Of a stretch of 46,465 bases of DNA, positions 6,949-46,465 are shown in pieces. Numbering within the stretch: the first letter of the stretch is position 1; each line of letters starts with the position of its first letter. Source of the stretch: an uncultured virus (IMG/VR IMGVR_UViG_2061766007_001087) (Duplodnaviria; Heunggongvirae; Uroviricota; Caudoviricetes; Schitoviridae). The notes under the pieces were generated by a model that was not told the DNA's origin, did no database searches, and was given only the letters and a program-made list of their open reading frames with translations. The position numbers were made by a program, and so were the translations under genes. The stretch lies in IMG/VR virus record IMGVR_UViG_2061766007_001087, one strand, 5' to 3'.

Positions 6949-6977
6949 AGTTTACTTCGGATTTTAACACCTGTCAA
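6949..6977 (-). promoter_or_regulatory. Sigma70-type promoter for the gp69/terL operon
   Basis: Minus strand TTGACA (6977-6972), 17-nt spacer, TAAACT (6954-6949). N4 late genes are transcribed by host sigma70 RNAP. Confidence 0.75.
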
Positions 6978-7071
6978 CGGGGTTTTCAAAATTCTTAGGG
7001 AATATTTTTAATTTTTGTGTGAAGGTAATGTAACTGATTACTGAACAAGATAGGGGGATACCCCCCCCCCT

Positions 7072-7089
7072 ATTAAAATTTCTCGGTAG
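7072..7089 (+). promoter_or_regulatory. Phage promoter-like motif copy 1
   Basis: ATTAAAATTTCTCGGTAG, overlapped by the hairpin CTCGGTAGT-ATTC-ACTACCGAG (7082-7103). Confidence 0.7.
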
Positions 7090-7116
7090 TATTCACTACC
7101 GAGGAGGGAACAAGCC

Positions 7117-7203
7117 ATGATGTGGGCTTTCTTAATAATCATCGTTCTGAAGTTCGGCAAGCGTCTAGTAGACATACTAGACAAACTTGTCAGCGAGAAG
7201 TAA
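7117..7203 (+). CDS. 28-aa hydrophobic peptide, first early ORF
   Basis: MMWAFLIIIVLKFGKRLVDILDKLVSEK*, with SD GAGGAGG, lying between a promoter motif and a terminator. Confidence 0.65.
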   Translation: MMWAFLIIIVLKFGKRLVDILDKLVSEK

Positions 7204-7210
7204 GAACTTT

Positions 7211-7235
7211 AGGGAGCAAATGCTCCCTTTTTTTT
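7211..7235 (+). terminator. Rho-independent terminator
   Basis: AGGGAGC-AAAT-GCTCCCT followed by a T-run. Confidence 0.85.
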
Positions 7236-7971
7236 CAAACTCCAATACTTTCCCTTTATCCTCTATGATAGGGGAAGACAGAGTTTATCCCACTTTTTGG
7301 GTTATTCTCCTTATATCTTATTTGTGTATGAATACCTATATCCTCACAATAAACTAATTGATTAAATTAACCCTGCTTCGCTTAAGGGTTAATNNNNNNN
7401 NNNNNNNNNNNNNNNNNNNNNNNNNNNNNNNNNNNNNNNNNNNNNNNNNNNNNNNNNNNNNNNNNNNNNNNNNNNNNNNNNNNNNNNNNNNNNNNNNNNN
7501 NNNNNNNNNNNNNNNNNNNNNNNNNNNNNNNNNNNNNNNNNNNNNNNNNNNNNNNNNNNNNNNNNNNNNNNNNNNNNNNNNNNNNNNNNNNNNNNNNNNN
7601 NNNNNNNNNNNNNNNNNNNNNNNNNNNNNNNNNNNNNNNNNNNNNNNNNNNNNNNNNNNNNNNNNNNNNNNNNNNNNNNNNNNNNNNNNNNNNNNNNNNN
7701 NNNNNNNNNNNNNNNNNNNNNNNNNNNNNNNNNNNNNNNNNNNNNNNNNNNNNNNNNNNNNNNNNNNNNNNNNNNNNNNNNNNNNNNNNNNNNNNNNNNN
7801 NNNNNNNNNNNNNNNNNNNNNNNNNNNNNNNNNNNNNNNNNNNNNNNCATCATATTCGACGGTCCTGTAGAGGACTGGTTCGATGATGACGACGAATAAT
7901 CATTGAACCAGTTTGCAGTTATCGCTCTGCGTTACCAAAAGCGTGTTCATTAATTTAATAGGAGTATTATT

Positions 7972-8215
7972 ATGCGTGACTTCATATTTGATAATTTTGA
8001 GGAGGAAGAAAAAGATGCTCTCCTCAATAATGTTTCAGTTGTTAAACCAACTGANNNNNNNNNNNNNNNNNNNTGAAGAAAAATATGTTGAATCAGTCAG
8101 TTTGGATAAACTAACTGACGAACAGCAAGACAAACTTTTCACCGTGTTAGGTGAGGGTTTGAATAAGATTCTCAAGGGTCTCGCCAGTTTTGACGATGAC
8201 GATATTCCATTCTAA
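7972..8215 (+). CDS. Small acidic early protein with SSB-Ct-like tail (FDDDDIPF)
   Basis: AGGAG SD then ATG at 7972 (MRDFIFDNFEEEEKDALLNN...). Joins across an N-run to ...KGLASFDDDDIPF*. Confidence 0.75.
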
Positions 8216-8263
8216 ATGTAGCAGGCATCGGTATATCCGTGTAAGTCCTGCTACATTTTTTTT
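8214..8263 (+). repeat. UAAGY-bulged hairpin copy 1 (terminator-like)
   Basis: AAATGTAGCAGG-CA-t-CGG-tatat-CCG-TG-TAAGT-CCTGCTACATTT followed by a T-run. Confidence 0.8.
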
Positions 8264-8329
8264 AATCTTTTGGTAAGTAAATAGTAGTAAGGCTAACATC
8301 ATGCTTGATACATTCTACTTACCATCAGC

Positions 8330-8347
8330 AATAAAATTTCTCGGTAG
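8330..8347 (+). promoter_or_regulatory. Phage promoter-like motif copy 2
   Basis: AATAAAATTTCTCGGTAG. Confidence 0.75.
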
Positions 8348-8672
8348 AAACAGGTCCTCGTTTAGCGACGCGAGAATAAATAATGTTGCCATCGTAGACA
8401 GTTTGAGTTGGCATTCTGATACAAAAATGCTAACACCGATTCCGCTACGGGATATTAGCGGACGTCGTTCGGTAACATTGCGACGTTATAGACAAAAGTT
8501 ACCTACCCTAGACAACGCTGAGGGCGAACTGCAACGTCTAGGTTAGTGAAAACCGGTTTTCCTGATGTTTCCGGATACAAAAAACGACGTCCCGCTCAGT
8601 TTAATGGCATTGCTGAGTGATTGAGCAAAAACCATTCGTCTTTGGCACCTAGACGTAAAAATAAGGTGTACC
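8348..8672 (+). ncRNA. Candidate large structured non-coding RNA (3' end probably in the N-run 8673-8739)
   Basis: No SD-led ORF. At least seven helices, a 10-bp long-range closing helix (8460-8469/8583-8592) and two tandem H-type pseudoknots. Flanked by promoter motifs at 8330 and 8757. Confidence 0.7.
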
Positions 8673-8756
8673 NNNNNNNNNNNNNNNNNNNNNNNNNNNN
8701 NNNNNNNNNNNNNNNNNNNNNNNNNNNNNNNNNNNNNNNTTCATTACTTGAGAGAA

Positions 8757-8774
8757 AATAAACTTTCTTCATAG
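8757..8774 (+). promoter_or_regulatory. Phage promoter-like motif copy 3
   Basis: AATAAACTTTCTTCATAG followed by the hairpin GAGGTTGCTA-GAGA-TAGCAACTTC. Confidence 0.65.
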
Positions 8775-8830
8775 GCGAGGTTGCTAGAGATAGCAACTTC
8801 ATATGTTAATTTATTTTTATGGAGGTCGCT

Positions 8831-9200
8831 ATGACTACAATTTATACATCTTATTACACAAATATACGTAATTTAAATGCTGACTACTATAGAGTCAGCA
8901 TCTCNNNNNNNNNNNNNNNNTGTAGTAGATGAAAGGGTGCAATTACTTGCACCACCTGCTCATACATTATGGGCACATAAGAATGGGCAGATAAATAATG
9001 CTCAATATACAGAACAGTACATTGAGCATTTAAATGCTCACCATGAACAAGTCATTGAAGTCATGAGACAAATATGGCGAAATGCACATGGTCGGAACAT
9101 TGTGCTCTTATGCTGGGAGAGCAAATCGAAATTCTGCCACCGTCACCTGTTTGCTGATTGGTTCTATCGGCAAACAGGATACCGAATTGAGGAACTGTAA
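8831..9200 (+). CDS. DUF488-family protein
   Basis: GGAGG SD and ATG at 8831 (MTTIYTSYYTNIRNLNADYYRVSIS). Joins across the N-run to LLAPP...IVLLCWESKSKFCHRHLFADW, carrying the LLCxE...CHR signature of DUF488. Confidence 0.8.
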
Positions 9201-9203
9201 GGT

Positions 9204-9236
9204 GGGTGCTAGTAGTGAAACATTCTACTAGCACTC
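9204..9236 (+). terminator. Strong 3' stem-loop after the DUF488 gene
   Basis: GGGTGCTAGTAG-tgaaacatt-CTACTAGCACTC. No U-tract. Confidence 0.5.
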
Positions 9237-9239
9237 AAC

Positions 9240-9257
9240 AATAAAATTTCTCAGTAG
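9240..9257 (+). promoter_or_regulatory. Phage promoter-like motif copy 4
   Basis: AATAAAATTTCTCAGTAG. Confidence 0.75.
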
Positions 9258-9314
9258 TGCAAGATAGTTCTCGCACTTCAACATTTATTCACTAACAGCC
9301 ATAGGGAGGCTATC

Positions 9315-9521
9315 ATGAAATTTATCATCACTTTTCAAATTGCTGATGACTTTGCTGAACAGATTTCTTACCACAGCGTAGTCTGTGATGAAGAAGAAGT
9401 AAATTCTGTTCAGCAAAAGATGATGAGCGATTATGCTCCATTCATCGAGGTTCTGTCTGTTACCCCATACGAGGGTCCAGACGACAGTGATTATGAAGAC
9501 GACGAAGCAATCCCGTTCTAA
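9315..9521 (+). CDS. Small acidic early protein with SSB-Ct-like tail (EDDEAIPF)
   Basis: 68 aa, GGGAGG SD, ends DDSDYEDDEAIPF*. Confidence 0.8.
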   Translation: MKFIITFQIADDFAEQISYHSVVCDEEEVNSVQQKMMSDYAPFIEVLSVTPYEGPDDSDYEDDEAIPF

Positions 9522-9530
9522 GTCGTCTTC

Positions 9531-9563
9531 TGCAGGCATTGTTCCATACATGTAAGTCCTGCA
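9531..9563 (+). repeat. UAAGY-bulged hairpin copy 2
   Basis: TGCAGG-CA-t-TGT-tccat-ACA-TG-TAAGT-CCTGCA. Confidence 0.8.
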
Positions 9564-9591
9564 TTGGTTTAATCTAATTAGGAGAAAAAAG

Positions 9592-9795
9592 ATGATTAGG
9601 TTCGAAAGTGCCCTCATTGTTCTGGGCAACAAACAAGTTAAAGTGCAGTTATGCCGTAATGTGGCATATCTGCAATATTCCAAAGATATTGTAGAAGAAG
9701 TCAATTTCGTAGAACTGGCTAAACTTCTACAGAATGTACAGGTTCTCAAGCACTCCAGAAGTTTCTGGAAAGTGCTTCAGAGCAGAGTACAGTAA
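9592..9795 (+). CDS. Hypothetical early protein
   Basis: 67 aa, AGGAG SD. Confidence 0.7.
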   Translation: MIRFESALIVLGNKQVKVQLCRNVAYLQYSKDIVEEVNFVELAKLLQNVQVLKHSRSFWKVLQSRVQ

Positions 9796-9797
9796 AT

Positions 9798-9836
9798 CCA
9801 GCAGGCACTTGTCGTGAGACATATAAGCCCTGCTGG
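9798..9836 (+). repeat. UAAGY-bulged hairpin copy 3
   Basis: CCAGCAGG-CAct-TGTC-gtga-GACA-ta-TAAGC-CCTGCTGG, followed by TACATTTTTT. Confidence 0.75.
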
Positions 9837-9891
9837 TACATTTTTTAAGTATGCAGTAGTTAGAATAGATACGCTCTGCATACATGGAAAG

Positions 9892-9909
9892 AATAAAATT
9901 TCTCCATAG
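9892..9909 (+). promoter_or_regulatory. Phage promoter-like motif copy 5
   Basis: AATAAAATTTCTCCATAG followed by the hairpin ACGGTTGTT...AGCAACCGT. Confidence 0.75.
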
Positions 9910-9972
9910 AAACGGTTGTTCACGATAGCAACCGTAATCCAACTTGTCACTTGCCTTAGGAGGGCTACAATT

Positions 9973-10307
9973 ATGTTAAACTCTATCCACGTTTTCGATA
10001 TTTTCTTCATCAACGCAGTTTCTGAGCAGGCTGAGGCTTGCGAACTTGAAACNNNNNNNNNNNNNNNNNNNNNNNNNNNNNNNNNNNAGACCTCTCTGAT
10101 GAAATTATTCGTGCTGAAACGGCTCGCATTGTTCGTCATGCAGTTTCTAGACTGCGTTCGACTGAGCAGAAAGTCATTATTGGCACACTCGCTGGTCTCC
10201 CACCAGAAGAGATTGCCCGTAGATGTGACATATCTACTGAGCGGGCAAAAATCGTCTGGCGGGAGGCCACGCTCAAGTTGAGGAGAGAACTTGAGCCGTT
10301 GCTCTAA
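9973..10307 (+). CDS. Small protein with a sigma70 region-4-like HTH domain
   Basis: ATG at 9973 with AGGAGG SD. After the N-run a different frame reads DLSDEIIRAETARIVRHAVSRLRSTEQKVIIGTLAGLPPEEIARRCDISTERAKIVWREATLKLRRELEPLL*, which fits the Sigma70_r4 pattern. Confidence 0.75.
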
Positions 10308-10313
10308 ATCTCC

Positions 10314-10345
10314 AGCAGGCATTGTGCAAACATGTAAGTCCTGCT
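10314..10345 (+). repeat. UAAGY-bulged hairpin copy 4
   Basis: AGCAGG-CA-t-TGT-gcaa-ACA-TG-TAAGT-CCTGCT. Confidence 0.8.
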
Positions 10346-10355
10346 TAAACCCAAC

Positions 10356-10373
10356 AATAAAACTTCTCAATAG
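10356..10373 (+). promoter_or_regulatory. Phage promoter-like motif copy 6
   Basis: AATAAAACTTCTCAATAG. Confidence 0.7.
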
Positions 10374-10402
10374 TATTTAACAATCTGCCATAGGAGGCAC
10401 TT

Positions 10403-10657
10403 ATGAACAACTTTTCAAATACTGCATTTACTTCTTTCGACCGTGACCCAGTAAAGGTTGAGGTTCACGCCCTCTTTGAAATAAGAGGTTGTGATGACGA
10501 AATGATTGAAACTTATTTCGTCACAACCCACATGGTAGTGGGTACCTGCTGGGACGACGAAGTACCACAGTTCCTTGAAGTTCTCCGTAAGAGAGTCGAA
10601 GAGGAATACAGGCACTACTACGCCTTCCTGCTGGAACATTGGGTGTTTCCAGCATAA
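10403..10657 (+). CDS. Hypothetical early protein
   Basis: 84 aa, AGGAGG SD, forms its own promoter-terminator unit. Confidence 0.8.
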   Translation: MNNFSNTAFTSFDRDPVKVEVHALFEIRGCDDEMIETYFVTTHMVVGTCWDDEVPQFLEVLRKRVEEEYRHYYAFLLEHWVFPA

Positions 10658-10674
10658 TAGAAAATAGCCCAGGC

Positions 10675-10713
10675 GGGAGTACTAGTCTTATGACTGGTGC
10701 TCCCTTGTTTTTT
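10675..10713 (+). terminator. Rho-independent terminator
   Basis: GGGAGTACTAGTC-ttat-GACTGGTGCTCCC-TTGTTTTTT. Confidence 0.8.
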
Positions 10714-10741
10714 CAAGTAAATGGAAAGAAAGTACATTTAC

Positions 10742-10759
10742 AATAAAATTTCTTCATAG
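10742..10759 (+). promoter_or_regulatory. Phage promoter-like motif copy 7
   Basis: AATAAAATTTCTTCATAG. Confidence 0.75.
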
Positions 10760-10789
10760 TATCAACTTAGCCTGTAGGAGGGCACAATT

Positions 10790-10999
10790 ATGAACGAATC
10801 AATTCAGTTTAAAGTTACTTCTATCGTTTACTTTAACGAAAAGTACAATAAGGGAGGAGAGTCCGAGACTTATGTTTTGCGTGGGTTCTGCACTCCCGAA
10901 GAAGTCACGAAAATCAGAGACTATGTCCTCGCTGAGAACTGGCGACAGTTCAGATACGAGGCAAAAGACATCAAGATTGTAAAAGTCGAGATTGTCTAA
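10790..10999 (+). CDS. Hypothetical early protein
   Basis: 69 aa, AGGAGG SD. Confidence 0.8.
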   Translation: MNESIQFKVTSIVYFNEKYNKGGESETYVLRGFCTPEEVTKIRDYVLAENWRQFRYEAKDIKIVKVEIV

Positions 11000-11004
11000 C
11001 CTCG

Positions 11005-11040
11005 GGCAGGTGGTGCCAGTGTGTACTGCCTGCCTTTTTT
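11005..11040 (+). terminator. Rho-independent terminator
   Basis: GGCAGGTGGTGC-cagtgt-GTACTGCCTGCC-TTTTTT. Confidence 0.8.
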
Positions 11041-11045
11041 CAGCG

Positions 11046-11063
11046 AATAAAATTTCTCGATAG
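11046..11063 (+). promoter_or_regulatory. Phage promoter-like motif copy 8
   Basis: AATAAAATTTCTCGATAG. Confidence 0.75.
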
Positions 11064-11098
11064 ACCAACATTTATCAACTAACCAAAGGAGTTCTATT

Positions 11099-11242
11099 AT
11101 GAAACATATTTACATAATCACTGGTCGTCATTACGGAGAGTCCGAGTACTCATACGTAATGTACGAAGGTACATACCTCGAGGCATGCTCATACGCTGAG
11201 TGGGAGTTCGACGATGTAAAAGCGGTTGAACTACTCATCTAA
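11099..11242 (+). CDS. 47-aa acidic early protein
   Basis: AAGGAG SD; MKHIYIITGRHYGESEYSYVMYEGTYLEACSYAEWEFDDVKAVELLI*. Too short for the ORF track. Confidence 0.75.
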   Translation: MKHIYIITGRHYGESEYSYVMYEGTYLEACSYAEWEFDDVKAVELLI

Positions 11243-11311
11243 CAACCCACAGGGGCAGTAGTGTATGCTATCTGCCCCTTTAGCAACATTTTTTTAACCA
11301 AGGAGAATAGT

Positions 11312-11473
11312 ATGAACAAATATCGTGTTATTTATTTTAATTACGACTTCGACCTCGAAGAAGCATATATCTTCGGGGATACCGAAGAAGAAGCCCTGTA
11401 TAATGCAGGGATTCCAGAAACCGAGGTGTTCTCTATTGAGGAACTCGATGAAGACGAAGACGAGGAGGATTAA
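11312..11473 (+). CDS. 53-aa very acidic early protein
   Basis: AAGGAG SD; MNKYRVIYFNYDFDLEEAY...EELDEDEDEED*; followed by the hairpin GGGAAGTC-GAAA-GGCTTCCC. Confidence 0.8.
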   Translation: MNKYRVIYFNYDFDLEEAYIFGDTEEEALYNAGIPETEVFSIEELDEDEDEED

Positions 11474-11521
11474 TCGGTGGGAAGTCGAAAGGCTTCCCTT
11501 GTTTCTGCAAATCGGGAAACA

Positions 11522-11539
11522 AATAAAATTTCTCGATAG
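11522..11539 (+). promoter_or_regulatory. Phage promoter-like motif copy 9
   Basis: AATAAAATTTCTCGATAG followed by the hairpin GAGTGA-tagat-TCACTC. Confidence 0.75.
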
Positions 11540-11597
11540 AGTGATAGATTCACTCAAGTATTCAACATTCATCAACCAACCAAAAGGAGAAAAAAAA

Positions 11598-11800
11598 ATG
11601 ATGAACACTGAAAATACCCGCACTCTGTATACTGTCACTGGACTTGACACCGAGGGTTATCCAGACGCTTACAACGTTTGGGCAAATGACCCAGCCGACG
11701 CCANNNNNNNNNNNNNNNNNNNNNNNNNNNNNNNNNNNNNNNNNNNNNNNNNNNNNNNNNNNNNNNNNNNNNNNNNNNNNNNNNNNNNNNNNNNNNNNNN
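11598..11800 (+). CDS. Hypothetical early protein (3' end in N-run)
   Basis: AAGGAG SD; MMNTENTRTLYTVTGLDTEGYPDAYNVWANDPADA... Confidence 0.65.
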
Positions 11801-11847
11801 CAGGAGGCTCCCCAATTTTTTTCCCTAGTGCAAAGAGAGAAAGACTA

Positions 11848-11865
11848 AATAAAATTTCTCAATAG
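11848..11865 (+). promoter_or_regulatory. Phage promoter-like motif copy 10
   Basis: AATAAAATTTCTCAATAG followed by the hairpin ACGTTGCTA-cttga-TAGCAGCGT. Confidence 0.75.
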
Positions 11866-11917
11866 AAACGTTGCTACTTGATAGCAGCGTACATCCACCC
11901 TTCAACAACGGAGTTCC

Positions 11918-12163
11918 ATGATGAAAATTCTCTACACAATTTCATGCCCTACATTCATTTTCCGTATCCTTCTTACCAAGGAAAACGGGCAGTTCGTTTA
12001 CTCAACTGAAGACGGGCAGACATACNNNNNNNNNNNNNNNNNNNAGGAAGATTTTATCCTCCTTCTTGCACTCTTCGGAAAAGCCTATTCCGGTGCAGGC
12101 TATTACGAGAATTACGGAAATTCAACCAGAATTAAGTTCAATATCACAAAGGAGACTCTATGA
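11918..12163 (+). CDS. Hypothetical early protein
   Basis: 81 aa, GGAG SD. Confidence 0.7.
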   Translation: MMKILYTISCPTFIFRILLTKENGQFVYSTEDGQTYXXXXXXXEDFILLLALFGKAYSGAGYYENYGNSTRIKFNITKETL

Positions 12164-12432
12164 TGAACAGAAACAATTTAATCCGCTACCACGTTGTATT
12201 CGACGCAACCGAGGAAAGGCATAACTGCTACTTTCCAGTCGACTTCCTTATTGAAAGGACAGAACAAGGTACTATCATTTACGACACGCTTGAGAAACCG
12301 GTTCTAATCACCAAAACAGCAATTACCGAAGAGTATCTCAAACTCGTGGCTAACTACCTGTTTTGCAGAGAATTTAAACGAACTTACAACATGATTCCAA
12401 AAATCATAAAGTTCGACTGTTACGATGAATAA
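12160..12432 (+). CDS. Hypothetical early protein
   Basis: 90 aa, AAGGAG SD, ATGA overlap with the upstream gene. Confidence 0.75.
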   Translation: MMNRNNLIRYHVVFDATEERHNCYFPVDFLIERTEQGTIIYDTLEKPVLITKTAITEEYLKLVANYLFCREFKRTYNMIPKIIKFDCYDE

Positions 12433-12570
12433 TCTATACGGCAGAGACAGGAGGCTCNNNNNNNNNNNNNNNNNNNNNNNNNNNNNNNNNNNNNNNNNNN
12501 NNNNNNNNNNNNNNNNNNNNNNNNNNNNNNNNNNNNNNNNNNNNNNNNNNNNNNNNNNNNNNNNNNNNNN

Positions 12571-12774
12571 GACATTGTCGTAATCCCAGTAATGGACCCA
12601 GGAACTTATGACGAGGTGTACTGGGTTGTGTTTCCTACAGAACTCTACGGTCTGGTAACTGAACGCTACGACCCATCTGACCTTCTTACCCTTAAGGGAT
12701 TCATCAAGGCTTACCTGTACGGTGAATATCCAGATGTCCTCTGGATTGCCCTAGACGAAGAGGCAAACGACTAA
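12571..12774 (+). CDS. Hypothetical early protein (start probably in N-run)
   Basis: Frame is open from the edge of the N-run (DIVVIPVMDPGTYDEV...) and followed by a hairpin. Confidence 0.6.
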   Translation, partial: DIVVIPVMDPGTYDEVYWVVFPTELYGLVTERYDPSDLLTLKGFIKAYLYGEYPDVLWIALDEEAND

Positions 12775-12825
12775 TAACCAACCCCAGGGCAGGAGAAATC
12801 CTGTCCTTTAACATTGGAGAAAACA

Positions 12826-13017
12826 ATGAAAGCAACAATTTTAACAATTCTTTTTATCTTTGGTTCAGTCCTCTATATGGCTCATTACGCTTTAAGCCTT
12901 CCAGAAGTTGAGTTTAGTTACTCAACCAAAAAGTGTGTAAAAGTGATAGACGCAGACGGTGGAGTACACTCATGTAAGCATCTGCCAAAAAAGTTCTATC
13001 ACGTCTGGGTTAAGTAA
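12826..13017 (+). CDS. Small membrane-anchored protein
   Basis: GGAG SD; N-terminal hydrophobic helix MKATILTILFIFGSVLYMAHYAL; Cys pair in the soluble part. Confidence 0.7.
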   Translation: MKATILTILFIFGSVLYMAHYALSLPEVEFSYSTKKCVKVIDADGGVHSCKHLPKKFYHVWVK

Positions 13018-13082
13018 ATACAAGGAGGGTACTCATTGAGTACTCTCTNNNNNNNNNNNNNNNNNNNNNNNNNNNNNNNGCA

Positions 13083-13100
13083 AATAAAATTTCTAGATAG
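13083..13100 (+). promoter_or_regulatory. Phage promoter-like motif copy 11 (upstream of the gp2-like and RNAP II genes)
   Basis: AATAAAATTTCTAGATAG, overlapping the hairpin TAGATAGAT-agtaa-ATCTATCTA. Confidence 0.7.
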
Positions 13101-13149
13101 ATAGTAAATCTATCTACGTTTAACTTTTCACAATATGAGGATAAATTCT

Positions 13150-13620
13150 ATGAACGTATTTACTAATGCTTCTAACAATAATAACAAGGGTAACTTTATT
13201 GATGGTATGCTGTATGTCAAAGACTTGACTACTGGTGAGACTCGTTGCATTGGCTCAGTCTATACCCGTTCTCCAGTTGCTGAAGTTACTGCTTTGTTAA
13301 ACGCAGTTAACGCACACCCAGATAAACTCGGATTAGTGTTCGAAGACCGTAGAAGTAACATCAGTGCTAACTCCTTTCTGGGTCAGGTGATTGCTTCTGC
13401 TAAACCACAGCAGGTAGCACAGCCACAGTATGTCGTAGCACCACAGCCAGTAATTCAGCCATCAGCACAGACTGTTATGCCAATGGTACAGGTACAGCAA
13501 CAGCCTATGCCACAGGCTGTAGTACCACCACAGCAGAATGCTGGAATGCCACTGGGTGGTCAGCCAGTTCAGCAACAGCAGGTGCTTCAGCCTGTAACTC
13601 CTGATGAAGTTCCATTCTAA
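13150..13620 (+). CDS. Candidate N4 gp2/Drc-like ssDNA-binding protein with Q/P-rich linker and DEVPF tail
   Basis: GAGG SD before ATG at 13150. N-rich start, a short beta-rich domain, a long Q/P/V linker and the ending TPDEVPF*. Located upstream of RNAP II like gp2/Drc. Homology is inferred. Confidence 0.5.
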   Translation: MNVFTNASNNNNKGNFIDGMLYVKDLTTGETRCIGSVYTRSPVAEVTALLNAVNAHPDKLGLVFEDRRSNISANSFLGQVIASAKPQQVAQPQYVVAPQPVIQPSAQTVMPMVQVQQQPMPQAVVPPQQNAGMPLGGQPVQQQQVLQPVTPDEVPF

Positions 13621-13634
13621 TCAGTGAGGTTACA

Positions 13635-14157: not shown

Positions 14158-14233
14158 TTTAATTTAATCTAACAGTAAAAGCCTTTGAGCATTCAAAGGC
14201 TTATTTATTTCCGGAAAGCAAGGATAGAATTAA

Positions 14234-15115
14234 ATGAAACAGCAAGAAATGGAAATGCTCTATGCAGAAAATAACATGACTCATCTTCTGGATACTTATA
14301 TTTCAGATGAGTACATGGATTATTTAATACAGCGATTAAAGATAGTAATGGTTGCTGATTCTGAGAAACCTTTTAAGAGAGAGTGCATAGATTTAATTAT
14401 CAAAAACTGCAATCCAAGAAAGGTATTTAAGAAAATGATTACTCCATTTATCTTAAAAGATAAAGTAATCCTCCAAGAGATAGTAAGTAAAGTATTTCCA
14501 ATCTTTGGTAATGCTACTACCAAGCATAGACAAGGTATATGTGTAGACTGTTTTCTTACTGCTCTATTAGATGGTAATTACTTTAGCATTACTCAGACTT
14601 CAGAAGAGTACTTTGTTACTACTATTATTGATTTTACAAGTCTCAGAACTGCTGCACAGAATATGGGATTTGTACTCCCTTCTATTGAACCACTGGAACC
14701 AGTAGATAACAGACACATTGGATATAAAACATTCAGTGAATCTATTATTTGTGGTTCCAAGAATAATCCATTGGATTATGAAAAATGCTTTTCTCATATC
14801 AATAGAGAGAATAGAACAAAACTATGCTGGGATGATAGAGTACTGAAACTTTCTCCTCTTACATTTGNNNNNNNNNNNNNNNNNNNNNNNNNNNNNNNNN
14901 NNNNNNNNNNNNNNNNNNNNNNATTAATAATAGATTTAAACAGTTTGAATTACTAAAACAGAGTATTCCAGATAAGGTAAGTAAACTGGACGGAAATGAA
15001 TTTTACATTGCACACAAATATGATAAACGAGGCAGGTGCTACTGCAAAGCACATGAGTTTNNNNNNNNNNNNNNNNNNNNNNNNNNNNNNNNNNNNNNNN
15101 NNNNNNNNNNNNNNN
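14234..15115 (+). CDS. RNA polymerase II subunit 1 (N4 gp15-like)
   Basis: MKQQEMEMLY start and LPSIEPLEPV. After an N-run a different frame gives HKYDKRGRCYC (DxRGR motif). End lies in an N-run. Confidence 0.85.
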
Positions 15116-15119
15116 GAAA

Positions 15120-16380
15120 ATGATTAATTTTGAACCAATCGAATGGGCATTTATTGAGACTGCTAATCAGTTAGGTTTTGATAAGAAACCTTTTCAGGAG
15201 AGAATAAAGATAGGTTCAGATATATTTGAGGAAATTAAGAAATACGGAGTAGAGAAAACTTATTTCAAGTATAACCCAGATGAACCTCAGTTATTTGCAA
15301 GAGCATTAATCGGATTGGGAGATATTGCAAATGGTAAGCCTACCAATATGCTTGTAGGACTAGATGTTACTTCATCCGGACCACAAAATGGTGAAGTAGG
15401 TTCAAGAGATTCTACAGGTCTTGCAATTACTGGTGCAATAGATTTAATAGTAAATGGAGTTACTATAGTACCAGATGTATATACTGAAATAGAGAATAAA
15501 CTCAGACCAGTAGGTGTACCAAAACTAAGTAGAAAAATGGTAAAAGAAGCAGTTATTCCATATGTATATGGCTCTACTGATGCACCGAAATCTTTGTTTG
15601 GTAAGTTCTATAAACACTTTAAGGAGGCATTCTTCCAGACAATTCCTGGTTCAGATTCGTTTAAAAACTTATTAATAGATGCATGGCAGGACGACTGTAT
15701 GCTCTATAAATGGGAATTACCAGACGGATTTGTTGCTACTACTGTACCAGAAAAGAATATAGAATTCCGGTTACAGTTATTAGGAAATCACTCATATACA
15801 TATGTATCCAAGGAACCATCTCCATTGGAGAAAGGAGACCTGCATACAAAGGCATTATCAGCAAATGTATTTCACGCATTTGACGGATTTATGCTTAGAG
15901 AGGTACATCGTATANNNNNNNNNNNNNNNNNNNNNNNNNNNNNNNNNNNNNNNNNNNNNNNNNNNNNNNNNNNNNNNNNNNNNNNNNNNNNNNNNNNNNN
16001 NNAGGTTCCAATGGAAGAGCAGAACATCTGGAACAGTTGTACTGGAAATTCAAATTCTTTAGTTTTGAAATTCTGGAAGTTATCCAGTTAAATATAGGAA
16101 ATATCTCAGAAGAGTATATCAATGTATGCTTACAGCAAATTGAATATCTGTTATCTAAGNNNNNNNNNNNNNNNNATTCATGATGAGTTTATGTGTTCTC
16201 CACTTAACTGTAATGTTATGAAGCAGGTATACAATAATCTTCTGGGTGCTTTGTATTGTTCTGACTGGTTCCGTATAGTAATTAACGAATTGAGAAATGA
16301 CAATTTAGCAGATAAGTATGTAGAACCAATAAACTGGGATATTTATAACAAAATCATAANNNNNNNNNNNNNNNNNNNNN
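15120..16380 (+). CDS. RNA polymerase II subunit 2 (N4 gp16-like)
   Basis: ANQLGFDK..F.ERI, motif A GLDVTSSGPQ, motif B RKMVKEAVIPYVYGS, ANVFHAFDG and motif C IHDEF (about 16176). End lies in an N-run. Confidence 0.92.
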
Positions 16381-37203: not shown

Positions 37204-40200
37204 TTACCAAGGTAAATTACTAAACCAAGCAAAGAATTTAAATGCTGGTAACTGGTTACTAGAATCAAATACCGAAGTAATAGGGTTCTTAATGTTATAT
37301 AAGTTCTTATCTATATTTAGTAGATTAGATGTAAGTATTGCACCATCCGTTAATGGTNNNNNNNNNNNNNNNNNNNTGCTCTAGCAAACTTTCTAGTAAA
37401 CAAATGCAGTATAGGCATTTGAGTTCTTAATATGAACTTACTAAACCAAACTACACCTAAGTCATTAGCTGCCTGTGTAACTTTATTAGTTGGCAGGTCA
37501 TAGTTAATAAACATCTCCTGTGCATCCAGGAATGCATTAGTAGCATTCTGTTCATTGATTCTACGATCTCTGCTTTGTGGATACTTCTTTTCTCTCAGAT
37601 GAGTGTAGTATATCCATTTAGCTACTGTATCCGTACCTGTAGCAAGCTCCTGTGCCATGTCATATAGTTTAGTATTATGACGTATAAAGAGTACATCCAG
37701 TATAGGAGTTAAGCGTCTAAATACACCTGCATCCATTCTACTATTATCCAGGAATTTAAGTTCATCTGGTAATGGAGAAGGCTCTTCTCTGTTAATATCA
37801 TACTCACCACCTACTATAGAAGTAGCACCACCTAATCTAATAAATTCACTCATTGGGTTATTCTGTATATCATTTTGCAATGAAGTAAATTCACTTCTTA
37901 ATGCTGCTCTTTCATCTGCAGTTAATTCTTCTATATTTAGTCTAGTAAGTATATTACGGAATCTCCTCATTTTATCATTGTAGTCAGTGTAGTATTCGTA
38001 TCCTTTAAGTGTTTGTGATATAGCCTTTATTGGGCTAACTCCAGCAATAGACAATACTTGAATATTACTTCTTATATTGTTAAGAGATACTATAAAAGAT
38101 TTATTTACNNNNNNNNNNNNNNNNNNNNNNTTGCCTGTGTACGTAATCCCCACTTTTGTGCAAATATCTGATATGCAGCTTTTTTCAGGATATGTAAGCA
38201 TCTATCTCCATAGGCTTTATATTCCTCTGTACCTGGGTCCATCAGTCTTCTAAGAGAGAAGTTATGGAAACCAAATATAAGATTATAATAGTCTTTCTTT
38301 ATAAATAGATGTTCACCACCTAATCTTTCATGCAGGTACTTTCTAGTATCTTGTGGTAAAGTACTGTAGTCTTCCTGTACTACTGGATTCTCTGAATCTG
38401 GTGAAAGTTCAATCCATTCATCTTCATCATAGTCTTTATCAGTTCTGTGATTATGAATATCTATTAATGCATCAATCATGTTTCTATTGGCTGCAAAGGA
38501 AACTTGTTTTTCTTCAATGTTTGCTGCAGTTGCTGCAAGANNNNNNNNNNNNNNNTTTAATAGTTTTTCTCTCAGTTCCATTGAGTCTACAAATCTGATT
38601 GCCTTTGTTACACCTTTAGAATCAAATCCCAATTCACGGGCAAGTGATTTATTTGGAGTAATAGGTAATATAGTATCAAACTGGTTATCAATAGGAACTG
38701 CAGCCATATAGTTTTCTACTGCTTCTTTTTCACTGATTAACTCTGCACCAACAAAGTGAGTATCAATAGTAGCCAGTGCACCAGAAGTATGCCTATTAAC
38801 TACTGGTACTGAATTGTGCATAAGTTTAGGTGTAAATCCTAGTTTATTAGGTACAAATCCTGCTGTCTCTGGACCAGTATATACTACATATCCTTTTTGT
38901 TTTAAATCTTCATATGTAGCTTCATCATTTACTATTATTGATTCATNNNNNNNNNNNNNNNNNNNNNNNNNNNNNNNNNNNNNNNNNNNNNNNNNNNNNN
39001 NNNNNNNNNNNNNNNNNNNNNNNNNNNNNNNNNNNNNNNNNNNNNNNNNNNNNNNTGAATCAAAACCAGTAGATTTATGAGCTGCTCTCATAGCAGCAGC
39101 ATTAGTTTCTACTCGATAGAGTTCCTGTAGAGTTTGTAAATCTTCCTGGTTTGCTTCCTGCTCTCTGTATAATTTCATTGCCTGTAAGGTAATATAGGCA
39201 TTTAACTGAGATTCTACTTGAGCCTGTTCTTCCGGTGAAGAATGCTTAAGTAATACTCCGTTGTATTCTGTACCAAAACCTAGAAGAATCTGAGCAGCAT
39301 TATGTAATGTTATCTCATTACTCCAGGAATCAGTAGCCAGTTTACATGCAAGGTTGTTTGCAGCATTAATTACAAAGTTAGTATAGTTACTCGGTAATTC
39401 AGGTATATTTAATATAGGATTATTTACTACTGCATCATTATAGTACCGTAAAGTATCATCTAAACCTACTCCAGTAGTAAGCATACTCATTATCTGTTGG
39501 TTATTGTAACCTACATTTTTTAAGCACTGTAAATCAAGTATACATACACCATTTCTAATTGCTCTTGCCATTGGTTCAGTAAGTTTATTAGCAAATGAAC
39601 CTAAAAGAACTCTAGTATCTTCAGTCAGATTTTGCTGTCTGGTTCTATTAAGAGCAGANNNNNNNNNNNNNNNNNNNNNNNNNNNNNNNNNCTTCCATCT
39701 TTAGAGTAGTAAGAGTTAGTTACTTCATTTAAGGTTTCCCTAGTAAACCTATTAACCTTCTTTAATACTCTTTCTAAACGATGTCCAAATGCCTGTACTC
39801 TTTGTGCAACAGGTTCTCTTCCTATTTCATCCAGATGCATAGATACACCAGTATCAGTAGTATCTAAAGTTCTATCTAATACTGTAGATAATCTATCTAT
39901 TGTTTGTCTATATGGAATTTGGAAGTAATCTTTTTCAGTCTTGTTTGCTGCATCAAATACTGCTTCTACTGTATCCATTAAACTAGGAGTTACATTAACT
40001 GTATTCCGTTTAAATTTATTAGATGCTTTTTGTAATAAAGTAGATATAGCAGTTGAAATGAAATCTATAAGAGCACCAAGTACACTTCGAGCAGTATCTT
40101 TATCATTTACATTGGTTAAATGACCTTTTACATATGGAACTTGACTTAATGCATTATTAATAAATTCATTGGTATATGCCAGTACTGCAAACTCTTCTAT

Positions 40201-43200
40201 TACATCATTGGATGCAGTACCTTCTGCTCCTGTACCAAACATATAATCATACATTACTTGTGCATTAGCATCTTCTCTTGCATTAGCCTGGTCTGCTAAA
40301 TCCTGACTACCCAGTTCTGCTGCTGTCCAGTTATGCTGTCTGAGTAAATGCATATTATCAGCAAAGTATTCTCTTGCCTGTACCCAGGATCTACGAAGTG
40401 TCTTGAATTCTGGACTATACCTATCTACTGCCTTGAATACAATATGCATATTCTCATGTGCATACATCTCTCGAACACTCATAGGTATACCATGTTGTAT
40501 TGCATCTCCAACACTTCTGGTTATTGCTACTACTTTATTTGAAGTAGCAGCTAAACCTGCTCTACCATGATTTACTACCAGTACTTTTACACCAGCAAGC
40601 ATATCTGCTATTTTTTCCATACGTCCTCTAAGAGTATTGGAGAACTGTGGACTTATAGCACGAATAGTACCTACACCAGATGCAGTATTAACTGTAACAG
40701 TACTTTCTAATGCATCAAAGTTTCTTAATACTTGATTCTTAGTATTAGTTACTATTGTTTGTACTGCTGGGTCACTGATAGGCTGGTTATTAATAGCAGC
40801 TATCATTGCAGAGCGTAAGTCTGCATCTTCTCTGGCTCCTGCATTATTGTGCCTTTCATCTTTACCTGCTGTACGTAAATCCTGTGGAAGTACATTTTTC
40901 CATTCATTAAATTTAGCTTTATAAGCTTCTTTTACACCTTGTTTAAATTGATTGAATACATCTAATGCATCTCTTTGTTTTTGTTTCTTACAATGAGCTG
41001 CAAGGTCATTATTATCTGTAATAGCAATTAAATTAATAAATGGAATACCATAGGCAGGTCTATCTTTATCTGTTGGATTTTGCTTTTCTTCCAATATACC
41101 CATTGCATGGTTAGCAGTATTAGTTAGCTCACTTATTTTTCCATTTGTGCCAATAGAGAGTCTCTGGATTTCAGCAATAAAATCATATGGGTTAGTGCTG
41201 GCTAAAGTTTCATCAAAGTCTAAATCTGCATTTTTTACATAGTAAGGTAACGCCTCAGCTATTTCATCTAATACACGATTCTTCTCTGTTTCAGATAATT
41301 CATTAAATGCCTTTGGAGGATCGTCTTTATCCACTCTTTTATGGTAGCGGATCTTAGGTGCTTTATCTATTGGATATACATCTTCCAGCATATAGTCATT
41401 AATTTCTATAAGCGAAGCCAGTGCACTCTTGGTTTCATTATATGGAGTTTCATTTGCTTTCCCATATAATTCAGCTATATTCTGCCTATTTTTAACCCTA
41501 TATCTAGGCTGATTATAGGTATCCATTAACTCATTACCTTTAAATGCAATACCCATATTGTACTGGAATATAGAGTAATCTCCAGAATGGAAATCCTGCA
41601 TAGCTTTTAAGTGCTCTTCTTCTGCTCCCTGAATAAGTTTAAGCATATGATTAAACAGTGTGTTATGTACTTCAGGATTCTGGAATATAGTATTAAATAT
41701 GTTATTACGCTGGTCCATATTAAATAAGGTAGCACCAGCTCTATACGCTTCTTTAGAGTCAGTTCTAACAACTTGTTTATAGTTAGCTAATTCTCTTTTA
41801 CCTGTCTCATAGTAAGTTTGAGTTTTATCATTAGCGAGTATACCATTATAGGCTTCTTCATCAATAGAGGCATATGGGTTGTATGCCTGCTTAAAGAACT
41901 CTATAAACTTACTCTGCATATCTGTTAATACAGCACCAGTTTGGTCTTCAATAGTACCATCTGGTAAATAGAGTGTACCTAAATCACTTTCCAGATTTAA
42001 TACATCATGATAGTCTGCTCCTGGATGCTCCTCTATATAGTAACCAATAGTAGCATACAGAGCAGAAGTAATTGCTTTGTTATACAAACCCATATGGTAA
42101 CTATAAGATTTCTTATGCTGATCTGGCATTAACAGCATACCTCTAGCAGACTCTATACAAGCATTATAGAATCCATCATTAAACGCCTGTCTGATTGCTA
42201 TCTTAGTCCATCCCAATCGTCTAACTAGTTTTTCTGTATTGTAGTACCACTGGTTAATTGTAGATTCATCTTTATCTTTAGAGTCTATTTCTTGATATAC
42301 TCTATTACCATCTTCATCTGTAGTTAATTCAACACCAAGATCTCTTAATGTTTTACTAGTAATAAGACCCATCTGTGCTGCTACAGCAATTACATTTGCA
42401 CGGTTATATTTGTTATCTAAATTTACAGTTAATTCCGTACTAAGGTCAACATTAAGTATCTGACTATACTTAGCAAACAATGTTGCATAGTTCTTGAAGA
42501 AAGATGCATATTGTAAGTACCTAGATTTAGCTCCTGGATTTGCTATTGAATTAAGGAATGCCTTATTCTGTAAACGATTAAATACAAATGCCATATGATT
42601 ACACAACATTTCTGCAGCATCGTGTATATTCAGTGGCATCGTACCAGTTTGCTGTAATCCCTCTAATGCAGTATCACTGGCTATATTAGAGTCATTGCTC
42701 TGAATACCATCTACTGTTAAACTAATACCAGCACTGTTAGTAGAAGCAATTCTACCACTGCCTGTTACTACTACACCATTGGTATCAGTCATACGTAATG
42801 GATTATTTAAATCACTTTCGTACTCCTTCTTAAGTATAGATATACCCTCTCCAGAAGGAAGATTTAACTGAGACTTATTAAACAGAATATTAAAGGATTC
42901 TACCAATGCTTCTTTAATATCTANNNNNNNNNNNNNNNNNNNNNNNNNNNNAATTAAAGCGTCATTACGTTTTAAAATTTCCTGGTAGTTTATGTTACTA
43001 AAGTTAGCCAGGTAATCTTCCTCTACTCCTGCCTCATTCTGGATTGTTCTAATCCTATAATTTAATGGAGTTTTACCATTTAAGATATTCTTAAAGGAAT
43101 CTGCCATAAATGAGAGTATTTCCAATGGAGCAATACACATTTGAGTCATTGCTCTATTATTACCCATTGGTTTCATCATAGATTTAAAGATTGCTTGACC

Positions 43201-46200
43201 TATAGTATTTTCAAACAGAGGAATAATTGCATGAGTTAAATCATAGATATTCTCTGAAGTAAATCCTCTAGAATGGTCATATCCTTTCTCAAAGTTCTCT
43301 GCATTACGTTCTGTATACTTAGAACTCTTTGTAAAGATATCTTTAATTTCTACTGCATCTACATAAGCCTGTGCACAGTTACCCATTGAGAAATTCTTTG
43401 CTTTAGGGAACCCTGATTTACCAAGTACTAAGTCAAAACTACCATTCTTATTTGTAGCAGTTCTTTGGCTACCCAGGAACTTAGTATATACCTCAGCAAA
43501 CTTAATAGGATTTTTAATGTACATCAGTTTTAACCGATGACCTATTCTGGCACCTACTGGATTAGTACCATCTTTGTATTTAAAAATATCTTTCAGTAAG
43601 CTAAGAGGAAATACCTCTGCAGTAAGGAAATCTTTATTTTCTTCCTGTATCTTATTATCTCTTGCAGCTCGTTTAGCTTTTACTATATTAAGCATTAACT
43701 TTCTGCCTTCCTTGGAAGAAGATAAGTAATACTTATTATGGAATTTAATTACATGTGCTGAGTAATTTAATACAGGAATACCAGCAGCCTTAGCTTCTTT
43801 TACTACAAGTCCATTATCTCCTAATGCATTAGGTACAGTAACTAAATCTACATTTTTAATTACCGGGTTACCATTACTATCTTTACCAGGAGAATAAACA
43901 GTATCAGCCATATAGTATGCCTGACTACACTGTACGTACTGAGTAGTACCACTCTTGGTTATATAATTATCTCCTGTTTTACCAGTAAGCATATCAGCAG
44001 GTTTATAGTAAGTACCATCCTGGTTCTGTCTAGGCTGAAACAGGCTTAATACTTCCTGACTGCAATCAAATATATAAAGTCTTCTAGATTCTCTTTCTCT
44101 TGCTTCTGCAGTGTCATATGGTTNNNNNNNNNNNNNNNNNNNNNNNNNNNNNNNNNNNNNNNNNNNNNNNNNNNNNATTTATACGATTATATGCTTCTGC
44201 AGTATTGATAAGAGTCTCTATACCGTTATCTCGTTTATCCGAATTAAACTGGAAATAGCTCATTATAAAGTTAGCTATTTCTATTTGCTTGGCTTCAAAT
44301 GCAGTAACATCTTTCTCACCTTTAATAACCTTCTTCCATGGAGTATTACTAAAGTTAATTTTAATAAATNNNNNNNNNNNNNNNNNNNNNNNNNNNNNNN
44401 NNNNNNNNNNNNNNNNNNNNNNNNNNNNNNNGAATTTACATCCAGCAATATGTGATATTGCCTGTGGAGTATATTGTGATACCTGTGGATTATAGTCTTG
44501 ACCAATAACAGTATTGAGTAACTCAGTACTATATGAATTATCTGGATGTAGTAAATCNNNNNNNNNNNNNNNACTATTAAACAAACTAGTATCATCACTA
44601 ATACTGTAAGTTTTACCTTTTGGTGCAAAACCAGGACGTATATTAGAGAAACTAGTAGAGTATTTACCCAGTGCTACACAACTAATAGCATTTAAGATAT
44701 ANNNNNNNNNNNNNNCTGATTATCTAATTTACTTAAAGATTCATATAGTAACTTTCTTGGTTTAGCTGCATTAAAGTTATTCCAATCAAGTTTACTGTTT
44801 ATTTCTGGTTTTTGATTTAATAAATTAATTACCTCTTCATAGGTATTTAATTCTGGTAAGTTTTCTTCTGGTGCAGATGCTCTATACTCTTTATACATAT
44901 TAACCCAGAGTTGTCTTACATCAGTAAGTTGCTCCAGTTTTTTCTGCATAAACTGATTAAAATCATTTAAGCCTAAATCATTATCCAGAAATTCCTTATA
45001 CTGGTTCTCTACCCATGTAAACCAATATGGAGCACTTTCTTTATTGTACTTATTAAACTGAGCTTCCATATGGAAAGAGGCTACCAGTTTATTAGCAAAT
45101 GCTTCCAGTGCCTTAGGTCTTGCTGTTTCAGATAAGTTACCTTCAAGGCTGTTCATTAAAGAAGTAAGTAAATAAGGTAATGCATAGTTTCTTACATGTG
45201 CTTTGATATTACCCCAGAATTCCCACTTTGGTACTACTGTATTCTCTTGAGAATAGTAACTATCTTCAATGCTATCCTGGACTTCTTTAAATTTCTTAGA
45301 TAATGTGAATGCTCCTGNNNNNNNNNNNNNNNNNNNNNNNNNNNNNNNNNNNNNNNNNNNNNNNNNNNNNNNNNNNNNNNNNNNNNNNNNNNNNNNNNNN
45401 NNNNNNNNNNNNNNNNNNNNNNNNNNNNNNNNNNNNNNNNNNNNNNNNNNNNNNNNNNNNNNNNNNNNNNNNNNNNNNNNNNNNNNNNNNNNNNNNNNNN
45501 NNNNNNNNNNNNNNNNNNNNNNNNNNNNNNNNNNNNNNNNNNNNNNNNNNNNNNNNNNNNNNNNNNNNNNNNNNNNNNNNNNNNNNNNNNNNNNNNNNNN
45601 NNNNNNNNNNNNNNNNNNNNNNNNNNNNAAACGCTTAATAGGGCACTCAGTACCGTTAATTTTAGTGTCTAAATTAAAATCTGATATTGAGTCCATTGTA
45701 CAGAGAATATCTAAATCTATATTTGCTTTAATAGTTTCATATAAGTCCNNNNNNNNNNNNNNNNNNNNNNNNNNNNNNNNNNNNNNNNNNNNNNATTTTC
45801 CAGACCACCATTTAGTCTGGCAATACCAATACTATCCAGGAAGTTATAACCATCTACTTCTGGTACATTTAATCCCTGATTTTTAATATAGGATAATATA
45901 CCAAGAGTAAATAACACACCCATTGCAGGACCATTGGTTACACCATCTGATTCTATGTGCATGTAGTTAACATACTTACCATTTTCCAGAGAATCATCTA
46001 ATGCTTTCCAGAATTCATCTACTGTACAGTTTTCTGGTATTTCTGCATTTGCAAACTGCTCCATAGTCTGCATTATATTAATAATGGCAAACTTATGTTC
46101 AAACTCGTAACCCTTAGATTCCAGATCCTCAATGCACTTTAACCAAGTATCTAACTTTGTATCATAGTCTTTAGCAGCTTTACTCTTTTTAGCAGCATCT

Positions 46201-46465
46201 ACCAGAATACGTACTGCGGTCATCATTTTCCCGTTCTTGTACCAGGTTTGTAATGTACCTTTTTTTTCTGGTTTTAATCCAAGATTCTGCATTATTCCAA
46301 AGGCGAATATATCATGTTCTGATANNNNNNNNNNACTAATTTATTTTCTATTGCTGTTTGTTCATTAAACCGCATAACCTTTGTTATATTAGGATTTGCA
46401 AGCACACCCAATAATTTATCTAACTCTGCTTTGGTTTTCTCTGCATCCTGTATGTACTCAGGTGT
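37204..46465 (-). CDS. Virion-encapsidated RNA polymerase (N4 gp50-like), 5'-truncated by the window
   Basis: Track ORFs 45717.., 44692.., 44114.., 39625.., 38105.. and 37350.. link across N-runs into one reading of about 3080 codons ending FSNLPW* at 37204. Motif A IESDGVTNGP (about 45946), motif C LNIHDA (about 42620), zincin HENMH...EEF and C-terminal FINYDLP...NDLGVVWFSKFILRTQ. Convergent with dut, as in N4-like genomes. Confidence 0.9.

Follow-up and report, generated by a model that had tools for sequence, protein, structure and literature searches.

The stretch of DNA studied here, hereafter the window, is the 46,465-nucleotide record IMGVR_UViG_2061766007_001087 of IMG/VR, an uncultured virus of the Schitoviridae. 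Its early region consists of small genes separated by gaps in which an 18-nt motif, AATAAAATTTCTCNNTAG, recurs 11 times on the plus strand between positions 7072 and 13100, six copies being exact, four having one mismatch and one having two. All 11 had been listed in an earlier reading of the letters alone (the original prediction), and all are confirmed, including their placement in non-coding sequence: each lies outside the open reading frames (ORFs) led by a Shine-Dalgarno (SD) sequence, copy 2 overlapping only a mechanical ORF without SD. Past copy 11 and three small ORFs come the genes of the phage RNA polymerase II (RNAPII), without any further copy of the motif. The features of the array are the following.

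7055..7071, plus strand: hairpin GGGGG-ATA-CCCCC, continuing into a C10 tract that adjoins copy 1
7072..7089, plus strand: copy 1, one mismatch; 28-nt leader, ORF 7117-7203 (28 aa, hydrophobic), terminator 7211-7228 with a T8 run
8330..8347, plus strand: copy 2, exact; no SD-led ORF in the next ~400 nt
8757..8774, plus strand: copy 3, two mismatches; leader hairpin 8777-8800, ORF 8831-9200 (DUF488-N3a)
9203..9237, plus strand: 13-bp 3' hairpin after ORF 8831-9200, ending 2 nt before copy 4
9240..9257, plus strand: copy 4, exact; leader hairpin 9257-9276 starting from the final G, ORFs 9315-9521 and 9592-9795
9892..9909, plus strand: copy 5, exact; leader hairpin 9912-9935, ORF 9973-10307
10356..10373, plus strand: copy 6, one mismatch; 30-nt leader, ORF 10403-10657, terminator 10675-10704
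10742..10759, plus strand: copy 7, one mismatch; ORF 10790-10999, terminator 11004-11035
11046..11063, plus strand: copy 8, exact; ORFs 11099-11242 and 11312-11473, terminator 11479-11498
11522..11539, plus strand: copy 9, exact; leader hairpin 11539-11555 starting from the final G, ORF from 11598 into a masked run
11848..11865, plus strand: copy 10, exact; leader hairpin 11868-11890, ORFs 11918-12163 and 12160-12432
13083..13100, plus strand: copy 11, one mismatch; leader hairpin 13100-13114, ORFs 13150-13620, 13635-13904 and 13951-14157
14179..14202, plus strand: hairpin (10-bp stem, 4-nt loop, weak T-run) separating the small ORFs from the first RNAPII gene

When up to three mismatches are allowed, the window holds 14 matches to the motif, against a mean of 2.0 (maximum 6) in 100 dinucleotide-preserving shuffles, none of which reaches 14. 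With a weight matrix derived from the 11 sites, these obtain 23.2–28.7 bits, and the next best site of the unmasked sequence, on either strand, reaches 12.2 bits; the claim that no copy exists outside these 6 kb is borne out, the motif is not frequent inside genes, and the matrix finds no copy among the replication genes (14–37 kb). Because 12% of the window reads N (74 masked runs), further copies may be hidden, e.g., in 7394-7847 or 12458-12570. The information content amounts to about 21.6 bits across the 18 positions and does not exceed 0.5 bit in the flanks, with a sharp stop at both ends; the last base is an invariant G, and conservation is strongest at the C of position 11 and at the closing TAG. 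Ten-mers belonging to the motif are the most repeated of the window, with nine, eight and seven copies, whereas unrelated 10-mers have at most five; in the early regions of three control phages, N4, Erwinia phage Pastis and Vibrio phage PG11, the highest copy number of any 10-mer is 0, 3 and 4, respectively. In the PG11 early region, the word TGTCTAGA occurs 13 times, mostly preceded by an A to give ATGTCTAGA; as a promoter candidate it was rejected, since it apparently marks where a family of paralogous small early ORFs begins, with the start codon and the residues MSR-. Beyond the window, the exact motif is found in 30 IMG/VR loci, with one match each, and in at least 115 stretches of metagenome contigs, none with more than one match among the matches listed. 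Likewise, none of the 145 loci fetched from these exact-motif scans has two or more copies at up to two mismatches.

The original prediction also had the copies lying mostly just after a 3' hairpin, and such is the case: a hairpin or terminator ends 0–12 nt upstream of copies, and at least nine of the 11 have a hairpin within 75 nt, the upstream flanks of two being masked. Four structures are canonical intrinsic terminators with T-runs (7211-7228, 10675-10704, 11004-11035 and 11479-11498), and terminator-like sites number 14 in the region, where shuffles give 4.4 ± 2.0. A second repeat family is made of 3' hairpins of the form GCAGGCA...CCTGC (8221-8251, 9532-9562, 9801-9833 and 10315-10344), which have a conserved interior and all follow stop codons, two of them (including 8221-8251) being in turn followed by T-runs. 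The remaining hairpins include strong stems that are not repeated elsewhere, such as 9203-9237. The 10-mer CAGGAGGCTC lies next to a masked run in two places, 11801-11810 and 12448-12457, each time at the 3' end of a unit; it possibly represents a third terminator family, and another motif copy may be concealed by the mask at 12458-12570. Two other interpretations of the repeats were rejected: iterons or a packaging site, since genes space the copies, one per gap, and minus-strand terminators, since the T-rich run begins at least 9 nt past most stems.

On the downstream side, an SD-led small ORF follows 10 of the 11 copies, as had been claimed, the final G of the motif being separated from the start codon by 28–64 nt. 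The leaders are short (28–36 nt) behind copies 1, 6, 7 and 8, and long (50–64 nt) behind copies 3, 4, 5, 9, 10 and 11; the extra length of the six long ones corresponds to a stem-loop beginning at +1 to +4 from the final G (z of -2.7 to -4.1 for five of them), which probably serves RNA stability. In units 4–7, a small GCC...GGC hairpin immediately precedes the start codon and carries the SD in its loop (9298-9314, 9953-9968, 10386-10399 and 10770-10783). The number of ORFs per unit ranges from 0 to at least five, so that the description of the units as single-gene cassettes fits some of them, whereas several hold two to five ORFs and one has no clear ORF. The latter is the unit behind copy 2 (8348-8740), which has no SD-led ORF and yet is the best-conserved early segment in relatives (8–26 differences over 458 nt; see below for the relatives); its predicted folding is no better than that of shuffles (z = -1.27). 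As for the two genes at about 7848-8215, no promoter is visible in front of them, and a 454-nt mask precedes them.

Since a hairpin or terminator directly precedes each presumed promoter, the first ~6 kb is split into short insulated units. Genes downstream of each terminator need a new start, and the terminators adjoin the motif without leaving room for another element; therefore, we read the motif as a promoter. It is, moreover, strand-specific, co-directional with the genes, gene-proximal and present once per gap. Strand specificity, an intergenic position and a frequent stem-loop on the downstream side would also suit a motif acting in the RNA or as a protein-binding site, i.e., either a processing site at which a long early transcript is cut, by analogy with the RNase III sites that cut T7 early RNA into units, or an operator for an early shut-off protein, the single upstream start being possibly supplied by the hairpin at 7055-7067. 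We regard such a role as very unlikely, because at least four units end in canonical T-run terminators just before the motif, which would leave the downstream genes untranscribed unless these terminators leak, and because the following stem-loops vary in spacing and sequence and are missing behind four of the 11 copies. In addition, a search of 6900-14300 against Rfam returned no match.

If the motif is a promoter, the host RNA polymerase, perhaps aided by an injected or early phage factor, might recognise it through TAAAAT, which matches the -10 hexamer at five of six positions, A2 and T6 included. A sigma-70-like scan does flag one copy (10722-10749), and the C-terminal part of the unit 5 ORF (10089-10307) weakly resembles sigma-70 region 4, scoring 19.3 and 19.0 bits where the cut-offs are 24.1 and 25.7. 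However, there is neither a conserved -35 element nor a TG extension, the upstream flanks carrying at most 0.5 bit, and the strongest conservation falls downstream of the hexamer (C of position 11 and TAG), where sigma-70 recognition does not explain it. Sigma-70-like sites are not enriched in the region either (26 vs. 23.3 ± 5.2 expected), and N4-like phages use the host polymerase for their late genes, which lie on the other strand. Recognition by the host enzyme thus appears highly improbable to us.

Two polymerases of the phage itself come into consideration. According to PHROG scans and a comparison with N4, the window has the N4 layout, i.e., a late-gene block, the early array, RNAPII genes, replication genes and the gene of a virion RNA polymerase (vRNAP), and its sequence marks it as an N4-like phage (Schitoviridae) of high divergence, recovered from bovine gut metagenomes. 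The blocks outside the array are as follows.

1-6970, minus strand: terminase, gp69-like protein and virion protein (PHROG scans)
14234..16091, plus strand: two-subunit RNAPII genes, 14234-14956 and 15120-16091, partly masked (phrog_2166, phrog_2051)
After the RNAPII genes to about 36.5 kb: replication genes (PHROG scans)
37350..46465, minus strand: vRNAP gene (phrog_2206 on C-terminal pieces), broken by masks and running off the window end

The RNAPII belongs to the minimal kind with two subunits, one of 240 aa and the other of 413 aa in the closest relatives, which carry PF00940. In the PHROG scan, the only RNA polymerases are this minimal enzyme and the giant vRNAP, and the window lacks a T7-like one of full size. 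The central 1455 aa of the vRNAP have no PDB match and no PHROG match below E = 0.1; in the corresponding fragment (39625-43992, minus strand), an HExxH-like sequence, HENMH, is present, and NIHDAAE may be polymerase motif C.

The divergence of the phage is apparent in sequence comparisons. The window has zero blastn matches among 50,697 phage records, and its conserved exonuclease has at most about 41% identity to any of 472 matching records, all from N4-like phages of Proteobacteria; the host is probably a proteobacterium of the rumen. An alignment search with the RNAPII large subunit and a structural protein gave no relative in IMG/VR, and the RNAPII query found none in JGI metagenomes or GTDB genomes. 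Alignment of RNAPII led to four IMG/VR loci only, the best matched segments of which are 23–58% identical, none being close, and no array of repeated 9-mers is present in any of the four.

In the reading that we favour, and to which we give an even chance, the motif is a linear, non-hairpin early promoter covering -17 to +1 and most likely read by the injected vRNAP. The original prediction had proposed a promoter of a different class serving either a divergent vRNAP or RNAPII; the promoter part is the best supported (an intergenic, co-directional 18-nt block ending in G and placed after terminators, in a region devoid of an N4-type hairpin family), while, judged by the sequence alone, either enzyme may be the reader. 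In mechanistic terms, the window would carry at least 11 copies of a phage-specific early promoter, with the RNA starting at or near the final G of a block that extends to about -17, and the reader would be a single-subunit RNA polymerase of the phage, most likely the vRNAP entering with the DNA. Easy melting of the AT-rich core would then take the place of the hairpin extrusion seen in N4.

Several features argue for the vRNAP. As the RNAPII genes follow copy 11 and have no motif to themselves, at least this copy must act before RNAPII exists, the RNAPII genes depending on copy 11 or on read-through. Besides, all copies lie between the gp69-like/terminase block and the RNAPII genes, i.e., at the end expected to be injected first, as for the vRNAP promoters of N4. 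Copy 1 stands directly after the C10 tract, beside the late-gene block, as P1 of N4, near the left genome end, comes after a C9 tract; the 7055..7071 hairpin and C10 tract are therefore probably a genome-end motif and not a promoter. Finally, a motif of ~21.6 bits does not suit a minimal two-subunit RNAPII, which counts for the vRNAP.

The alternative is that the motif is a middle or delayed-early promoter of the two-subunit RNAPII, the vRNAP using a few hairpins (e.g., 7055-7067 and 14179-14202) while RNAPII fires the 11 promoters and reads into the replication genes. RNAPII is a closer relative of T7 RNA polymerase, an enzyme that uses linear duplex promoters about as long as the motif. In N4, a hairpin promoter lies directly before gp15 (at 4554), and the hairpin at 14179-14202 occupies the equivalent place in the window, where it could be an attenuator or, under this alternative, a hairpin promoter. 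Moreover, the N4 RNAPII promoters are linear and AT-rich, with a minimal -7 to +2 sequence and starts across the left half of the genome, and RNAPII can be produced in quantity, which would suit 11 promoters if one follows an argument made for N4 (PMC4496689). Against this, not a single copy is found among the replication genes at 14–37 kb, over which the N4 middle starts spread, and the motif has about 21.6 bits over 18 nt, whereas -7 to +2 plus cofactors suffice for N4 RNAPII. Furthermore, the two candidate hairpins share no sequence, the first of them matching the C-tract end motif that N4 also has, and copy 1 is located where the first-entering promoter is expected. On balance, we consider transcription of the array by RNAPII unlikely.

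Other observations weigh against reading by the vRNAP and have to be set beside those that favour it. The promoter-binding part of the vRNAP is either masked or beyond the window. The vRNAP of N4 reads a purine at -11, a G at -10, a G at -8 and a C at +1 (G start) of the template strand (PMC4496689); if the final G of the motif is +1, the template instead has T at -11 and A at both -10 and -8, so that recognition would have to differ from that of N4. N4 virions inject about four vRNAP molecules, a number argued to suit few vRNAP promoters (PMC4496689). The motif, being linear and AT-rich like the N4 RNAPII promoters, suits RNAPII as well. At copies 1 and 11, the last eight bases of the motif form part of the longest stem, which would fit a start upstream of the G. 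Lastly, TAAAAT lies within the motif, and for this reason a role of the host polymerase keeps some weight.

An N4-type hairpin family is absent from 6900-16200. Perfect stems of 5 bp or more closed by a 3-nt loop number six there; they have no sequence in common, and none is placed within a motif copy or at a constant distance from a copy. The arms of the motif around -11 pair at three of five positions, all A:T, and do not form the N4 hairpin of 5–7 bp with its 3-nt loop. In N4, the conserved vRNAP promoter sequence runs from -17 to +1 and has a GC-rich heptamer centred at -11 between inverted repeats (PMC4496689); in the N4 record, the hairpins stand at 96, 565 and 4554, each with a G about 11 nt past the loop centre. 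The N4 vRNAP uses its promoters without new protein synthesis and requires gyrase and host SSB. The motif resembles N4 vRNAP promoters in the length of its conserved block, a putative -17 to +1, in the G at the presumed start and in the position of its first copy after a C-tract, and it shares with N4 P1–P3 and the early promoters of phage LUZ7 a location at the leading genome end, on the same strand, upstream of small early genes and RNAPII genes. It differs from P1–P3 in being linear, with an AT-rich core and without inverted repeat, 3-nt loop, GC-rich heptamer or the bases at -11, -10 and -8.

It had also been said that N4 has only three vRNAP promoters, which is right for N4 itself, whereas LUZ7 has nine early start sites, preferring G (PMC9163698). 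Multiple early starts are therefore a point of likeness with LUZ7, and a count of 11 is less exceptional than the original prediction implied; what sets the window apart from both N4 and LUZ7 is that its 11 copies are near-identical and that each lies behind a terminator. With the middle promoters of N4 RNAPII, the motif shares a linear, AT-rich sequence for which easy melting is proposed, and it departs from them by its 18 nt and ~21.6 bits, by having no copies at 14–37 kb and by the low score of the best plus-strand site outside the array (12.2 bits). In a limited search of the literature, which is not proof of absence, we found no account of linear early promoters in Schitoviridae.

Promoters of the T7 group are contiguous blocks of ~18 bp with an AT-rich upstream half and TA before the G, present in many near-identical copies on one strand. 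The motif shares with them the contiguous ~18-bp block, the AT-rich upstream half, the TA before the G and the many near-identical copies on one strand, but its +2 to +6 positions are unconserved (at most 0.3 bit).

The other proposal attached to the repeats, namely that they act as recombination points at which cassettes are gained, lost and shuffled, receives real support from relatives of the phage. These are contigs from four other bovine-gut runs (hereafter X3 to X6) belonging to four studies, which cover most of 6736-16159 with 80–99% likeness. The one run labelled metatranscriptomic consists of contigs, probably of DNA, and is uninformative on transcript starts or ends. At the masks 13049-13079 and 15061-15115 (31 and 55 N), three to four relatives hold 68 and 70 letters, and several ORFs of the window shift frame across masks; because the relatives hold more letters there than the window has N, neither the mask lengths nor the frames across masks are to be trusted.

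The RNAPII region is near-collinear in the relatives, whereas many early ORFs are deleted, moved or exchanged for unrelated sequence about as long. For instance, between 7098 and 7212, 113 nt are swapped for 110 other letters, i.e., exactly the first ORF between its promoter and its terminator, and between 9251 and 9529, 277 nt are swapped for 286. The segments 11064->11238, 11242->11490 and 9942->10775 are absent from relatives, and in X4 the joint 8802->9201 shows that the DUF488-N3a ORF was skipped or replaced. Rearrangements also occur: in three runs (X3, X5 and X6), 12457 is joined to 9240, exactly at copy 4, which puts the copy-4 unit behind another unit, 12457 being joined in relatives to a motif copy via about 34 letters. 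In X5, the joint 10307->9547 falls within the GCAGGCA hairpin family, while other joints are located at 10357 and 10373 (copy 6) and at 11064 (copy 8). Among the breakpoints listed, 27 are distinct and not beside a mask; 20 of these 27 fall in linkers, against 41% expected from the share of linkers in the unmasked region, and five lie within 1 nt of a motif copy. This excess is to be taken as a pattern and not as a statistic, because the events are not independent and the breakpoints are only those listed, with 20 further joints outside the listing.

Further variation in the relatives, among the few differences listed, concerns the elements themselves. The copy 7 mismatch, at 10754, is replaced by C, the consensus base, in all four relatives, and a loose end of the X3 contig carries another motif variant behind a terminator. 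In the leader stem of copy 10, a G-U pair becomes A-U in all four relatives, among the differences listed. The promoter and terminator patches, the only sequences common to otherwise unrelated units, would double as homology patches for exchange, deletion and reordering among related phages.

An arrangement of this kind is known from T4-type phages, in which PeSL (promoter-early stem-loop) cassettes combine a terminator stem-loop and an early promoter between small ORFs, the promoters being strong, sigma-70-like and read by the host polymerase (PMC2839356 and PMC4122927). Exchange between neighbouring PeSL elements also produces mini-circles. The likeness is twofold: here too, composite terminator-plus-early-promoter elements occupy the gaps between small genes, mostly of unknown function, and the breakpoints of replacement, deletion and reordering between related phages, among those listed, coincide with the elements. 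The difference lies in the promoter, since the motif has no -35/-10 layout, the region has no excess of sigma-70-like sites and an N4-like phage brings its own polymerase. Breakpoints at promoter and terminator patches would in this way extend PeSL-type shuffling from T4-type phages, with their host-type promoters, to an N4-like phage with a promoter type of its own.

Taken together, these elements could be assembled into a broader scenario, possible but doubtful, in which a deep N4-like branch has seen its injected giant polymerase abandon extruded hairpins for a linear, AT-rich 18-bp promoter of T7-like geometry. About a dozen copies, spaced every 300–1250 bp and each behind a terminator, would let a few polymerases re-initiate stepwise and draw in the genome during expression of insulated anti-host genes; cassette exchange would be driven by these patches too. 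Since the hairpin promoter is characteristic of N4 and of the polymerase that it injects, reading of a linear signal by the vRNAP would, if true, mean that promoter recognition is evolvable in this polymerase family, and would offer a short, simple, orthogonal promoter–polymerase pair to test.

The swapped units carry candidate host-takeover genes, including three small early proteins (7972-8215, 9315-9521 and 13150-13620) with tails resembling the C-terminal tip of SSB. The SSB C-terminal hexapeptide is DDDIPF (PMC5872125); one of the three tails has exactly this sequence (...FDDDDIPF), the others reading ...DDEAIPF and ...PDEVPF, and the 156-aa protein has a Q/P-rich, SSB-like linker ahead of its tail. 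Such proteins may be decoys for the partners of host SSB, as their tails suggest, or, by analogy with N4, whose vRNAP needs host SSB, may be linked to the polymerase. The ORF of unit 3 (8831-9200) is a DUF488-N3a member at 44.5 bits, against a cut-off of 27. Elsewhere in the window, tRNA-Gln(TTG) and tRNA-Leu(TAA) genes are located at 21651-21901, amid the replication genes. Finally, the G+C content of the early region (7000-14000) is about 0.35–0.42 per kb of unmasked sequence, vs. about 0.28–0.33 in the replication and late regions, printed values being depressed by the masks.

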